Of a stretch of DNA of 15,277 nucleotides, positions 3,476-6,571 are shown piece after piece (positions within the stretch are counted from its first letter, which is position 1; every line of letters starts with the position of its first letter). Location of the stretch: UHGV virus genome UHGV-0113810; one strand, given 5' to 3'. Source of the stretch: a virus. The notes under the pieces are model-generated. The model made no database searches and had not been told where the DNA came from. It saw nothing but the letters and a program-made list of their open reading frames with translations. A program made the translations under genes and the position numbers.

Positions 3476-3490
3476 TCGCTTTGTCAGCGA
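3476..3490 (-). promoter_or_regulatory. nutR boxB hairpin (GACAA pentaloop, P22-type)
   Basis: Minus-strand RNA would be UCGCU-GACAA-AGCGA (5-bp stem, GACAA loop), between cro and cII where nutR lies in lambdoid phages. Same loop as nutL at 6008-6022. Confidence 0.55.
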
Positions 3491-3528
3491 CGTAGGACGA
3501 ATGTCCATTGTGAAAATAGCGGTGTTAC

Positions 3529-3729
3529 TTATGCAGTTGTTTTTTTGTTACTTGGAAAGGGCTTTACCTCTTCCGCATAAACGCTTCCATCAGCGTTTAT
3601 AGTTAAAAAAATATTTCGGCCTGCATGAATGGCCTTGTTGATCGCGCTTTGATATACACCGAGATCTTTAGCTGTCTTGGTTTGCCCAAAGCGCATTGCA
3701 TAATCTTTCAGGGTTATGCGTTGTTCCAT
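3529..3729 (-). CDS. cro: Cro repressor (lambda-type)
   Basis: 66 aa, [66 protein letters not shown], essentially lambda Cro (one apparent difference, N for K at residue 39, relative to my memory). AGGAGG RBS, transcribed from PR. Confidence 0.95.
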
Positions 3730-3753
3730 ACAACCTCCTTAGTACATGCAACC

Positions 3754-3823
3754 ATTATCACCGCTAGAGGTAAAATAGTCAACACGCACGGTGTTAGATA
3801 TTTATCCCTTGCGGTGATAGATT
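3754..3823. promoter_or_regulatory. Right operator OR1-OR2-OR3 with divergent promoters PR (minus) and PRM (plus)
   Basis: OR1 3756-3772 TATCACCGCTAGAGGTA, OR2 3780-3796 CAACACGCACGGTGTTA, OR3 3803-3819 TATCCCTTGCGGTGATA, with 7- and 6-bp spacers as in lambda. PR -35 TTGACT (complement of 3777-3782) and -10 GATAAT (complement of 3754-3759). PRM -35 TAGATA at 3795-3800 and -10 TAGATT at 3818-3823. Confidence 0.9.
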
Positions 3824-3829
3824 TAACGT

Positions 3830-4543
3830 ATGAGCGCAAAAAAGAAACCATTAACACAAGAGCAGCTTGAGGACGCACGTCGCCTTAAAGCTATTTATGA
3901 AAAAAAGAAAAATGAACTTGGCTTATCCCAGGAATCTGTCGCAGACAAGATGGGGATGGGACAGTCAGGCGTTGGTGCTTTATTTAATGGCATCAATGCA
4001 TTAAATGCTTATAACGCCGCATTGCTTGCAAAAATTCTCAACGTTAGCGTTGAAGAATTTAGCCCTTCAATCGCCAGAGAAATCTACGAGATGTATGAAG
4101 CGGTTAGTATGCAGCCGTCACTTAGAAGTGAGTATGAGTACCCTGTTTTTTCTCATGTTCAGGCCGGGATGTTCTCGCCTGAGCTTAGAACCTTTACCAA
4201 AGGTGATGCGGAGAGATGGGTAAGCACAACCAAAAAAGCCAGTGATTCTGCATTCTGGCTTGAGGTTGAAGGTAATTCCATGACCGCGCCAACAGGATCC
4301 AAACCTAGTTTTCCTGACGGGATGTTAATTCTGGTTGACCCTGAGCAGGCTGTTGAGCCAGGTGATTTCTGCATAGCCAGACTTGGTGGTGACGAGTTTA
4401 CCTTCAAGAAACTGATCAGGGATAGCGGTCAGGTGTTCCTACAACCACTAAACCCGCAATATCCAATGATCCCATGCAATGAGAGTTGTTCCGTTGTGGG
4501 GAAAGTTATCGCTAGTCAGTGGCCTGAAGAGACGTTTGGGTAA
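3830..4543 (+). CDS. cI: CI repressor (lambda-type, LexA/S24-like C-terminal domain)
   Basis: 237 aa, essentially identical to lambda CI over its whole length ([24 protein letters not shown]; C-terminal autocleavage domain). Starts directly at the PRM transcript start region, as in lambda. Confidence 0.95.
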
Positions 4544-4615
4544 TTCCAATTGTGATTAATAAAAAACCGATAGTGCAACATGTTATTGTAAATTGTTGAT
4601 ATAGCAAGGTATCAC

Positions 4616-5518
4616 ATGAGCCAAAATCTTGATTCAACACTAGAAACATACATTTCTTGGCAGTTAGAGCAATTTAAAAATAACTTTTTCCCAAGCTGCG
4701 ACGTCATAGCGTACTACGGTGGTATCTTTCCATGGTCAAAAGAAGTTTACCAACCAAAACTTGAGGCTATTGGGGAGATGGCTAACAGTCGTACCAATAG
4801 ATTTCTAGTTATTATACTCAATACAAATGGTGGCTCTGTTGAGTCTGTGGAAAAAATGGTAGAAATTACAAGGCATTTCTATCAAGAGGTATATTTTATC
4901 ATTCCAGATATGGCCATGTCGGCAGGCACAATATGGTGTATGTCTGGAGATAAAATTTACATGAACTATGCTTCTTCATTAGGCCCCATTGACCCTCAAG
5001 TGCAATCCTCTGACGGTAAATGGGTTCCTGCTTTGGGATACCTTGATAAAGTTGAAGAAATGATTACTAAATCCAGAGAAGGAACCATTACCCAAGCTGA
5101 ACTAATGATGCTTAGTCAGTTAGATCTTGCGCACTTAAGGAGATACGAGCAAGCCAGAGAGCTATCAATAGACTTGCTTAAGAAGTGGCTTGTAGAGTAT
5201 AAATTCAGAGAGTGGACGGTTCATCAAGGTAACACAAAACGAGGAAAGCTAGTTTCCAAGAGGGAAAAAGAAGCAAGAGCTAAAATGATCGCTACCGCTC
5301 TTAGTGACAACGGAAAGTGGCATTCTCACGGAAGAACGATAGGAATAAATACTCTTATCAATGACTTAAGAATTAAAGTAGAAGACTTTACATACGACAA
5401 AGATTTTAGCATGGCGTTAAAAAATCTGCACAACGTCATTAATGAATACATGTATAAGACAAATCGACAGGTTCTTGTTCTGTCTTCATTCCCCTTCTCA
5501 GAACAAAGTGAGTCATAA
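4616..5518 (+). CDS. ClpP/crotonase-fold serine-protease-like protein (SDH / S49-like family), at the position occupied by rexA-rexB in lambda
   Basis: 300-aa ORF on the cI strand between cI and OL/PL. Motifs LVIILNTNGGSVESV and PDMAMSAGTIWCMSGDKIY resemble the oxyanion and nucleophile-serine segments of ClpP/SppA-fold proteases. The region is clearly AT-rich compared with cI. Family assignment is from motif recognition only. Confidence 0.6.
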   Translation: MSQNLDSTLETYISWQLEQFKNNFFPSCDVIAYYGGIFPWSKEVYQPKLEAIGEMANSRTNRFLVIILNTNGGSVESVEKMVEITRHFYQEVYFIIPDMAMSAGTIWCMSGDKIYMNYASSLGPIDPQVQSSDGKWVPALGYLDKVEEMITKSREGTITQAELMMLSQLDLAHLRRYEQARELSIDLLKKWLVEYKFREWTVHQGNTKRGKLVSKREKEARAKMIATALSDNGKWHSHGRTIGINTLINDLRIKVEDFTYDKDFSMALKNLHNVINEYMYKTNRQVLVLSSFPFSEQSES

Positions 5519-5689
5519 ATGAGCAAAGACAAATCACTGACACAGCAAGTGGCAGAAATACTTAGCAAGCAAAAAGTTAGCGAGCAAGGTAAAATGATTC
5601 AATCATTAAAGAACAAAGGATTGATCAACAAGCCTGTTTTTACTTTGGCTTATGGACCTGATACTACAGTCTGCCAAATGCACCAATAA
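5519..5689 (+). CDS. Small hypothetical protein (56 aa), translationally coupled to the protease-like gene
   Basis: ATG at 5519 immediately follows the upstream stop (TAAATG). Translation: MSKDKSLTQQVAEILSKQKVSEQGKMIQSLKNKGLINKPVFTLAYGPDTTVCQMHQ. Followed within 10 bp by an intrinsic terminator. Confidence 0.45.
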   Translation: MSKDKSLTQQVAEILSKQKVSEQGKMIQSLKNKGLINKPVFTLAYGPDTTVCQMHQ

Positions 5690-5698
5690 CAAAACCCC

Positions 5699-5725
5699 AC
5701 CCGGCCTCAGTGCCGGGTTTTCTTT
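5699..5725 (+). terminator. Rho-independent terminator closing the cI / protease-module transcription unit
   Basis: Stem CCCGGC (5700-5705) with GCCGGG (5712-5717), loop CTCAGT, followed by TTTTCTTT. Confidence 0.6.
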
Positions 5726-5876
5726 GCCTCACGTTCGCCCCAAAACACATAACCAATTGTATTTATTTGAAAATTAATAGATACAACTCACTAAACATCG
5801 CAATTCAGATCTCTCGATCACCTCCCAAGCCACACACCCCTGCAAAAAAATAAATCTATATAAAAAACATACAGAT

Positions 5877-5939
5877 AACCATCTGCGGTGATAAATTATC
5901 TCTGGCGGTGTTGACATAAATACCACTGGCGGTGATACT
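5877..5939 (+). promoter_or_regulatory. Left operator OL3-OL2-OL1 with promoter PL (directed rightward in this window)
   Basis: OL3 5877-5893 AACCATCTGCGGTGATA, OL2 5897-5913 TATCTCTGGCGGTGTTG, OL1 5921-5937 TACCACTGGCGGTGATA; -35 TTGACA at 5911-5916 and -10 GATACT at 5934-5939 with a 17-bp spacer. Matches lambda OL/PL. Confidence 0.9.
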
Positions 5940-6007
5940 AAACACATCAGCAGGACGCACTACTCACCAGGGCGGTGAATATACAACGATTCGAATATGA
6001 ATCTACG

Positions 6008-6022
6008 GCGCTGACAAAGCGC
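6008..6022 (+). promoter_or_regulatory. nutL boxB hairpin (GCGCU-GACAA-AGCGC, P22-type)
   Basis: Exact match to the P22 boxB RNA hairpin as I recall it, located in the PL leader upstream of the N-like gene. Confidence 0.6.
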
Positions 6023-6034
6023 AATAACCAAAGT

Positions 6035-6173
6035 GAACTTTGGGGTGTGGTGAAGGGTTCATGGACGGGAATATGTCGCACGTAAAGCGGCGAGGCCTGC
6101 GGGACTATTGCCGAATTGAAGTAGGCCGAAACAGGTCGAAATGGGTCTCCCACCTACCACACCACCAAAGTTC
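6035..6173 (+). promoter_or_regulatory. Long-range stem in the N leader (lambda-type RNase III processing-site architecture)
   Basis: gaactttggggtgtggtg (6035-6052) pairs with accacaccaccaaagttc (6156-6173), enclosing ~100 nt and ending just before the N RBS (caggaggtctatATG). The lambda N leader has the analogous TTTGGGGTGTGTG...CACACACCACCAAAG stem. Confidence 0.55.
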
Positions 6174-6187
6174 ATCAGGAGGTCTAT

Positions 6188-6571
6188 ATGACACGCAGAA
6201 CTCAGTTCAAAGGCAATTCACGTTCTCGTCGTCGTGAGCGTTTAAAGGCAAAGGCATTAGCTAACGGCGTACTGGCCCGCGAAGAAGCAATAAGTTCAGA
6301 AGTATTACACCGCCCTACTCTAAGCAGAGCGCAGATTCAGGCTAAAGGTACTCACGAAACGCCTGAGCGCATAGAAGACGCTAAGCCAATTAAGTTCATG
6401 GCACAGGACGTGATCTGGCAACAGAAAGAATACAGACGCAATCTGGAGCGAGCGGCCATTGTGTACGCGAATGAGTTTGGACATAAGCAACCAGAAACTG
6501 GTGTATGTCTTCCGAACGTAGCTCTTTACGCGGCAGGATACCGGAAATCCAAACAACTGACAGCAAGATGA
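6188..6571 (+). CDS. N: Antitermination protein N (P22 gp24-like)
   Basis: First gene of the PL operon; arginine-rich N-terminal motif GNSRSRRRERLKAKA; C-terminus VALYAAGYRKSKQLTAR resembles P22 N (..ALYAAGHRKSKQITAR). Strong RBS AGGAGG. Confidence 0.8.
   Translation: MTRRTQFKGNSRSRRRERLKAKALANGVLAREEAISSEVLHRPTLSRAQIQAKGTHETPERIEDAKPIKFMAQDVIWQQKEYRRNLERAAIVYANEFGHKQPETGVCLPNVALYAAGYRKSKQLTAR

Follow-up and report, generated by a model that had tools for sequence, protein, structure and literature searches.

The N/nut antitermination system of phage H-19B (AF034975) has been studied experimentally (PMC3526286, PMC4499122); its nutR consists of two hairpins, and its nutR/tR1 region has been examined as a Rho-dependent terminator (PMC3526286). 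HK97 (AF069529), mEp234 (EF120460) and HK106 (EF120461) are wild phages with lambda immunity specificity. We compared these systems, and those of 933W (NC_000924), lambda and P22 (BK000583), with the virus genome UHGV-0113810, the whole 15,277-nucleotide (nt) stretch of which is called the window below. The window (15.3 kb) is the early region of a lambdoid prophage, with its plus strand running in the leftward (PL) direction. We are confident that positions 3476-6571 are the early control centre of an HK97-like lambdoid prophage, in which an imm lambda cassette is flanked by an N module of the H-19B/933W/HK97 type. The cassette, of lambda specificity, comprises cro, OR, cI, a variable cargo slot and OL/PL. 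On its PL side the flanking module supplies nutL and N with its leader, and on its PR side a boxA-like sequence, a spacer hairpin, boxB and tR1. The elements of this module are as follows.

6188-6571, plus strand: N antiterminator of 127 amino acids, H-19B/933W/HK97 type (Pfam PF25694, 58.5 bits)
6008-6022, plus strand: nutL boxB GCGCUGACAAAGCGC, reading GCGCTGACAAAGCGC; identical to the P22 nutL boxB and to the RNA of PDB 1A4T (PMC11480772)
5988-6003, plus strand: nutL spacer hairpin GAUUCGAAUAUGAAUC, predicted fold GAUUC-GAAUAU-GAAUC
3476-3490, minus strand: nutR boxB UCGCUGACAAAGCGA, the minus strand reading TCGCTGACAAAGCGA; identical in H-19B, 933W, HK97 and mEp234, and annotated as nutR boxB in mEp234
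3495-3506, minus strand: nutR spacer hairpin GGACAUUCGUCC, predicted fold GGAC-AUUC-GUCC, just upstream of boxB
3513-3521, minus strand: degenerate nutR boxA-like sequence CGCUAUUUU, its position transferred from the mEp234 annotation

The N protein was 100% identical to the N proteins of several Stx1a-converting phages, 99.2% identical to those of HK97 (126/127) and 933W, and 98.4% identical (125/127) to that of H-19B. Its arginine-rich motif, 12-RSRRRER-18, is present as in H-19B N (motif according to PMC3526286). The open reading frame (ORF) contained both strings, GNSRSRRRERLKAKA and ALYAAGYRKSKQLTAR, quoted in an earlier note made from the sequence alone, which had described the antiterminator as P22-type. 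Compared with P22 gp24, 36 of 95 aligned residues were identical, with two large gaps, and the likeness was limited to two places, the arginine-rich motif (F-GN---RR-ER) and, at the C-terminal end, the final ~20 residues (LP-VALYAAG-RKSKQ-TAR); full-length similarity at the level of an orthologue was not found. In a tblastn search with N, P22-like phages were likewise matched over residues 100-127 only. The P22 protein, at 100 residues, is shorter than N of the window, and the centres of the two are unrelated. Nine residues of the P22 peptide are reported to touch the RNA in the bound complex (PMC11480772). The window N keeps four of them (Asn, Arg, Arg, Arg), has conservative replacements at three (Lys>Arg, Arg>Lys, Ile>Leu) and departs from P22 at the other two (His>Arg, Arg>Asn).

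The relation to lambda N was more distant still. The alignment z-score was 12.5 against gp24 and 2.1 against lambda N. The PF25694 model (N_peptide; cut-off 27.9 bits) scored 58.5 bits with the window N and 152.2 bits with gp24 over its full length, whereas lambda N failed it at 16.4 bits. No match of the window N to PF11438 (N36, the lambda N family) was seen even at E<=1, and by this and the z-score there is no significant protein similarity to lambda N. The residue aligned to Trp18 of lambda N is Asn26, so the window N lacks an equivalent of that tryptophan. A search of PDB sequences with N returned a chance match only (E 1.5), and NCBIfam gave no match for N or cII. By these measures N is closer to P22 gp24 than to lambda N, and the boxB sequences likewise aligned closer to P22 than to lambda, which agrees with the earlier note to that extent. 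The protein is nevertheless not gp24. On its sequence it should be labelled H-19B/933W/HK97-type, for which 'P22-type' is imprecise.

We then considered the nut sites. GACAA boxB hairpins had been reported in the earlier note at both nut positions, and its coordinates and quoted sequences were exact. Each boxB is predicted to form a 5-bp stem closed by a GACAA pentaloop. The 13-nt core CGCTGACAAAGCG was present at exactly two places in the window, one for each transcript sense, compared to a mean of 0.00 in 200 shuffles. Elements this small might in principle be chance or convergent hairpins unrelated to N, and their size is the one point in favour of that view. Both have the correct transcript sense and occupy the canonical places behind PL and behind cro, and they are conserved together with N across phages and change along with its motif. 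Given this, and the shuffle result, we regard a chance origin as having a negligible probability. The sequence context of the two hairpins is conserved as well: ~100 nt around nutR/tR1 (3423-3522) and ~70 nt around nutL were 100% identical to both H-19B and 933W.

The sequences upstream of the boxB hairpins distinguish these sites from those of P22 and lambda. Spacer hairpins were present in H-19B, HK97, Oslo, g341c and VT2-Sakai, and absent from P22, EC416 and lambda. In mEp234, Oslo and g341c the stem of the nutL spacer hairpin is kept and its loop varies. The nutR boxA allele CGCUAUUUU is shared with H-19B and 933W, whereas HK97, mEp234 and HK106 carry CGCUCUUUU. We had considered the C>A difference from mEp234 and HK97 as a private mutation of this prophage and rejected this, as H-19B and 933W carry the same allele. 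No canonical boxA was found adjacent to the nutL boxB, and a scan for CGCTCTTTA with at most one mismatch gave no match near either nut site. P22 nut sites have a canonical boxA (GCUCUUUA) followed by a short, linear, hairpin-free spacer, an arrangement not found in the window, where both spacers are predicted to form hairpins. The P22 nutR boxB (CCGCCGACAACGCGG) was also not found; the window has UCGCUGACAAAGCGA at this position, with a different stem. Nor did the sites show the lambda boxB loops (GAAAA/GAAGA) or the lambda boxA CGCUCUUA, the loops here being GACAA. By their sequence and layout the nut sites are of the H-19B type. The P22-like character that the earlier note had ascribed to the boxB targets holds for the GACAA pentaloop of both sites and for nutL, whose boxB is identical to that of P22 at 15 of 15 positions, and does not extend to the nutR stem, the spacer hairpins or the boxA.

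An exact boxA core, GCTCTTTA, was also seen inside N at 6521-6528, in the sense of the PL transcript and ~500 nt downstream of nutL, where it coincides with the conserved VALYAAG codons. We judged it not significant as a boxA: chance would give ~0.5 matches to an exact 8-mer in the window, and the codons are constrained.

These comparisons bear on how the mosaic arose. The version in the earlier note amounts to a direct recombination between lambda and P22, by which lambda N and its nut sites gave way to P22 gene 24 and the nut sites of P22. The nutL boxB identity to P22, the gp24-like arginine-rich motif and C-terminus, and the membership of both proteins in PF25694 speak for such an event. 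Against it, the protein match stops at 36/95 with two large gaps, no more than 66 nt of DNA resemble P22 (74%), and both the P22 nutR boxB and the linear boxA-spacer layout are absent. That N and both nut sites are 98-100% identical to those of H-19B, 933W and HK97 contradicts this version. Moreover, a genuine combination of a P22 motif and P22 nut sites with lambda immunity exists, in the prophage of EC416, and it looks different. We therefore consider a direct lambda x P22 origin very unlikely, and take the N module to be of the H-19B/933W/HK97 type, sharing with P22 gp24/nut the PF25694 family, the GACAA pentaloop, the nutL boxB and the 20 conserved C-terminal residues.

Comparison across genomes indicated that N and its RNA targets vary together. 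The window, HK97, mEp234, H-19B and 933W share the same N and the same two boxB sequences. The EC416 prophage combines lambda immunity and the same protease cargo as the window (see below) with nut sites that are both P22-type, consisting of the linear boxA GCTCTTTA, the P22 nutL boxB and the P22 nutR boxB. In g341c and VT2-Sakai the N motif is G[S/T]AA-RRRERR, and both nut sites carry a GAAA-loop boxB with the same spacer hairpins; in Oslo the motif is GTSRARRRER and the nutR loop is GACAA. GACAA loops were paired with GN(S/A)(R/K)(S/T)RR and GAAA loops with G(S/T)AA-RRRERR. The joint exchange of N and its RNA targets, proposed in the earlier note, was seen in every genome examined, with N type and both nut sites changing jointly; eleven genomes entered this comparison. 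This supports the view that N and both boxB sites are inherited as a matched set, which would be kept together because N and nut sites must match. The genomes form a small natural series, in which the N motif and both boxB loops change in concert, that illustrates why the three elements are inherited together.

In the EC416 prophage (E. coli, NZ_AP027404; N and nut regions at 6540-7151 and 4091-4215) the N protein is itself chimeric, with the exact P22 arginine-rich motif MTVIVYGKSTFAGNAKTRRHERRRKLAIERD and a lambda-like C-terminus (...VTCVGRQKMKLGSKPLI). This protein shows that the RNA-binding and polymerase-binding ends of N are exchanged independently.

The cassette between the two halves of the N module is lambda-like throughout its regulatory parts.

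3830-4543, plus strand: cI repressor of lambda specificity, 235/237 residues (99.2%) identical to lambda and 237/237 to HK97 (Pfam HTH_3 and Peptidase_S24)
3529-3729, minus strand: cro of lambda specificity, 65/66 residues (98.5%) identical to lambda and 66/66 to HK97 (Pfam Cro)
3730-3829: OR1-3 with PR and PRM, a single base (OR1 G>A) different from lambda over 100 nt
3782-3754: PR hexamers TTGACT-17-GATAAT, from a promoter scan
5870-5945, plus strand: OL1-3 and PL, lambda-type, the aligned operator stretch identical to lambda
5911-5939, plus strand: PL hexamers TTGACA-17-GATACT, from the promoter scan
5699-5718, plus strand: Timm-like terminator at the end of the cI operon, from a terminator scan; the mEp234 Timm annotation aligns at the same place

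The lambda-like character of cI, cro, OR, OL and PL claimed in the earlier note was borne out by these comparisons, and with near-identical cI and Cro and with operators and promoters in the lambda arrangement the cassette belongs to imm lambda. The single operator difference lies in OR1 (3756-3772), which is TACCTCTAGCGGTGATA here and TACCTCTGGCGGTGATA in lambda. It is a common wild allele, since HK97, mEp234 and EC416 carry the same G>A variant. The likeness to lambda includes the overall plan of the region, with N as the first gene of PL, nutL after PL, nutR after cro, a long stem in the N leader and an RRRER core in N. H-19B and 933W, which resemble the window in N, nut contexts, boxA allele and both spacer hairpins, have immunity genes unrelated to those of the window (identity 20% for cI and 18% for Cro).

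Five-way alignments were used to map the breakpoints between these parts. At the left joint, lambda identity ran from 5699 to ~5961 and faded by 5978, and H-19B identity began at 5946. This places the crossover inside the start of the PL transcript:

5946-5978, plus strand: left joint, the start of the PL transcript (CATCAGCAGGACGCACT...), common to lambda, H-19B and P22

The core of this sequence, ATCAGCAGGACGC, is also present in P22. At the right joint, lambda identity ran from 4539 down to 3515 and H-19B identity started within the last cro codons; the overlap, CTGCATAAGTAACACCGCT, consists of the cro 3' end and the first bases of boxA. A third joint lies at ~3157-3165 inside cII, from where the sequence is lambda-like (94%) to 3051. 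From ~3083 leftward the sequence turns P22-like (89.5% over 2912-3083). The cargo slot is delimited by the cI stop codon (4543) and Timm (5699). The statement in the earlier note that the joints sit inside or next to conserved genes could thus be given positions: the initial ~30 nt of the PL transcript, the 3' end of cro together with boxA, and the cII 3' end/oop. These are short sequences common to all lambdoid phages, and the mosaic would have arisen by recombination within them. This corresponds to the textbook modular exchange of lambdoid phages, with the immunity cassette and the N/nut specificity set as modules of their own, connected by short conserved linkers.

The same mosaic was found in HK97, mEp234 and HK106, in which both flanks and the immunity core had 97-98% nt identity to the window. 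For HK97 the identity was 96.9% over 3049-4543 and 98.1% over 5702-6596, and mEp234 and HK106 gave similar values. These phages share with the window the lambda-type cI, cro, OR and OL/PL, N (126/127), both boxB sequences, the spacer hairpins and the 76 N-terminal residues of cII (74/76). The mEp234 GenBank record annotates boxA and boxB of both nutR and nutL at the corresponding positions. To follow the joints themselves, 201-nt probes spanning each of them were searched against 5,426 complete E. coli genomes at a coverage of at least 80%. The cro-nutR joint probe was found in 118 of these genomes and the PL-nutL joint probe in 111 (~2%), several of the matches being 100% identical. The arrangement of lambda immunity with an H-19B/HK97-type N is therefore already known and ordinary, having been sequenced in HK97 and occurring in ~2% of the complete E. 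coli genomes; as a control circuit it is old, widespread and not specific to the window. The main use of the present assignment is correct annotation: the N/nut set is H-19B/933W/HK97-type, with a nut architecture distinct from that of P22 and an experimental literature of its own.

By analogy with H-19B, the circuit would work as follows. After derepression, the PL and PR transcripts would carry nut RNA, and N would bind the GACAA boxB hairpin through its arginine-rich motif (residues 12-18, RSRRRER). With NusA on the spacer, N would turn RNA polymerase termination-resistant, its C-terminal domain contacting the polymerase, and the modified polymerase would read through the Rho-dependent tR1 and downstream terminators. 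In H-19B N, the substitutions R3H, S11F, R15C/P and R18P abolish antitermination at the H-19B nutR/tR1, and footprinting of this nutR showed that N with NusA/NusG protects the spacer and boxB and leaves boxA unprotected (PMC3526286). Binding of the N C-terminal domain to RNA polymerase was shown by the L108F suppressor (PMC4499122). Leu108 is present in the window N, and the tR1 region of the window is unchanged relative to H-19B, including its hairpin at 3429-3446. A reduced host-factor requirement is reportedly a property of N of the H-19B/933W/HK97 type, to judge by the title of a paper by Neely & Friedman from 2000.

The genes flanking the control region bear on whether this circuit still works.

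51-1361: IS66-family transposase (DDE_Tnp_IS66, E 1e-102), adjoining the truncated helicase gene
1365-2045, minus strand: DnaB-like helicase gene, truncated to 226 amino acids; the intact HK97 homologue is 1,377 nt long
Between the helicase gene and cII in window order: an O-like replication gene and a DUF2740 ORF

With the transposase next to a helicase ORF cut to 226 residues, one might take the N-nut module for an inert relic in a decaying prophage, with a circuit that no longer works. We consider this unlikely. The N, cI, cro and cII ORFs are intact, and so are the operators with PL and PR. Inducible Stx1a phages encode an N of the same sequence (100% identity), and nutL and nutR each match the functional site of H-19B at 100%. 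We prefer the reading of 3476-6571 as an HK97-like control centre.

Several observations nonetheless weigh against that reading. Replication of the prophage is probably defective, since its DnaB-like helicase gene is interrupted by the IS66-family transposase, and for this reason the control circuit may never complete a lytic cycle here. We infer the function of N/nut in this prophage from its near-identity to H-19B. In addition, the whole stretch 3300-6800 was contiguous in no phage record or complete E. coli genome, which is due to the cI-OL cargo and the lambda-like cII tail; the exact assembly here is a new combination of known modules.

The cII tail belongs to a group of further elements to either side of the cassette.

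3091-3390, minus strand: cII, a chimera (Pfam Phage_CII, E 2e-35)
3051-3156, plus strand: lambda-like patch with the cII 3' end and the oop antisense RNA, 94.3% identical to lambda; HK97 and H-19B diverge here
3115-3145: oop-type terminator, a hairpin and T-run from the terminator scan
3368-3381, plus strand: PRE CII-binding repeat TTGCTGTAACTTGC (TTGC-N6-TTGC), its position transferred from the mEp234 annotation
3429-3446, minus strand: hairpin UAUGCGUUUCCACGCAUA in the nutR/tR1 region, without a U-run (predicted fold -9.3 kcal/mol, z -3.3), 100% identical to H-19B
6033-6175, plus strand: long stem of the N leader in both the minimum-free-energy and the centroid fold (z -4.2), ending just before the Shine-Dalgarno sequence

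Residues 1-76 of cII are HK97/H-19B-type, matching HK97 at 74/76 positions and lambda at 21/81, and residues 77-99 are lambda-type, matching lambda at 18/23 and HK97 at 11/23. A lambda C-terminus joined to a different N-terminus, as the earlier note had put it, thus describes cII correctly, and its lambda-like oop was also recovered, in the 94% identity over 3051-3156 and the terminator at 3115-3145. HK97 differs from the window in both respects, the cII tail and oop of the window being lambda-like. A promoter consensus match at 3070-3097 is probably not the oop promoter, since transfer of the P22 annotation puts that promoter at ~3033-3061. For PRE, the lambda-like description fits the layout (TTGC-N6-TTGC) and not the sequence, as PRE lies within the non-lambda block. 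No Rfam family matched anywhere in the window at gathering thresholds, the nut/boxB sites and oop included.

The N leader retains the lambda-like long stem that had been noticed earlier: its base, CUUUGGGGUGUG...CACACCACCAAAG, recurs in lambda, where an equivalent stem forms. The centre of the leader (6049-6170) differs from H-19B and is HK97-like, and conservation is seen at the base of the long stem. Selection seems to act on the stem, with its interior free to vary.

The content of the slot between cI and OL is the only less ordinary item within 3476-6571.

4616-5689, plus strand: cargo in the rexAB slot, a 300-residue SDH-type ClpP-fold serine protease (Pfam PF01972, 41 bits; cut-off 31.3) and a 56-residue ORF

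Other genes occupy this slot in lambda, HK97 (gp48/gp49) and mEp234 (hicAB, as in HK106). In lambda, HK97 and mEp234 these are exclusion or toxin-antitoxin genes co-transcribed with cI. The NCBIfam match of the protease was below the cut-off, its phage homologues were at most 30% identical, and PADLOC gave no match for the cargo ORFs or the three ORFs downstream. One complete E. coli genome, EC416, carries the protease cargo at the cI-OL position. We would tentatively, and with rather less than even expectation, propose that the protease and the 56-residue ORF are an uncharacterised prophage-encoded exclusion or defence module.

The remainder of the window lies downstream of N.

After N: a long early-left operon, including RecT-, Gp157-, Ea22- and Nmad5-type genes
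13961-15227: lambda-type xis and int

At 7663-8301 and 12667-13317 the early-left operon encodes a protein with an Nmad5 (nucleotide-modification-associated) domain and a dATP/dGTP pyrophosphohydrolase fused to DUF551.

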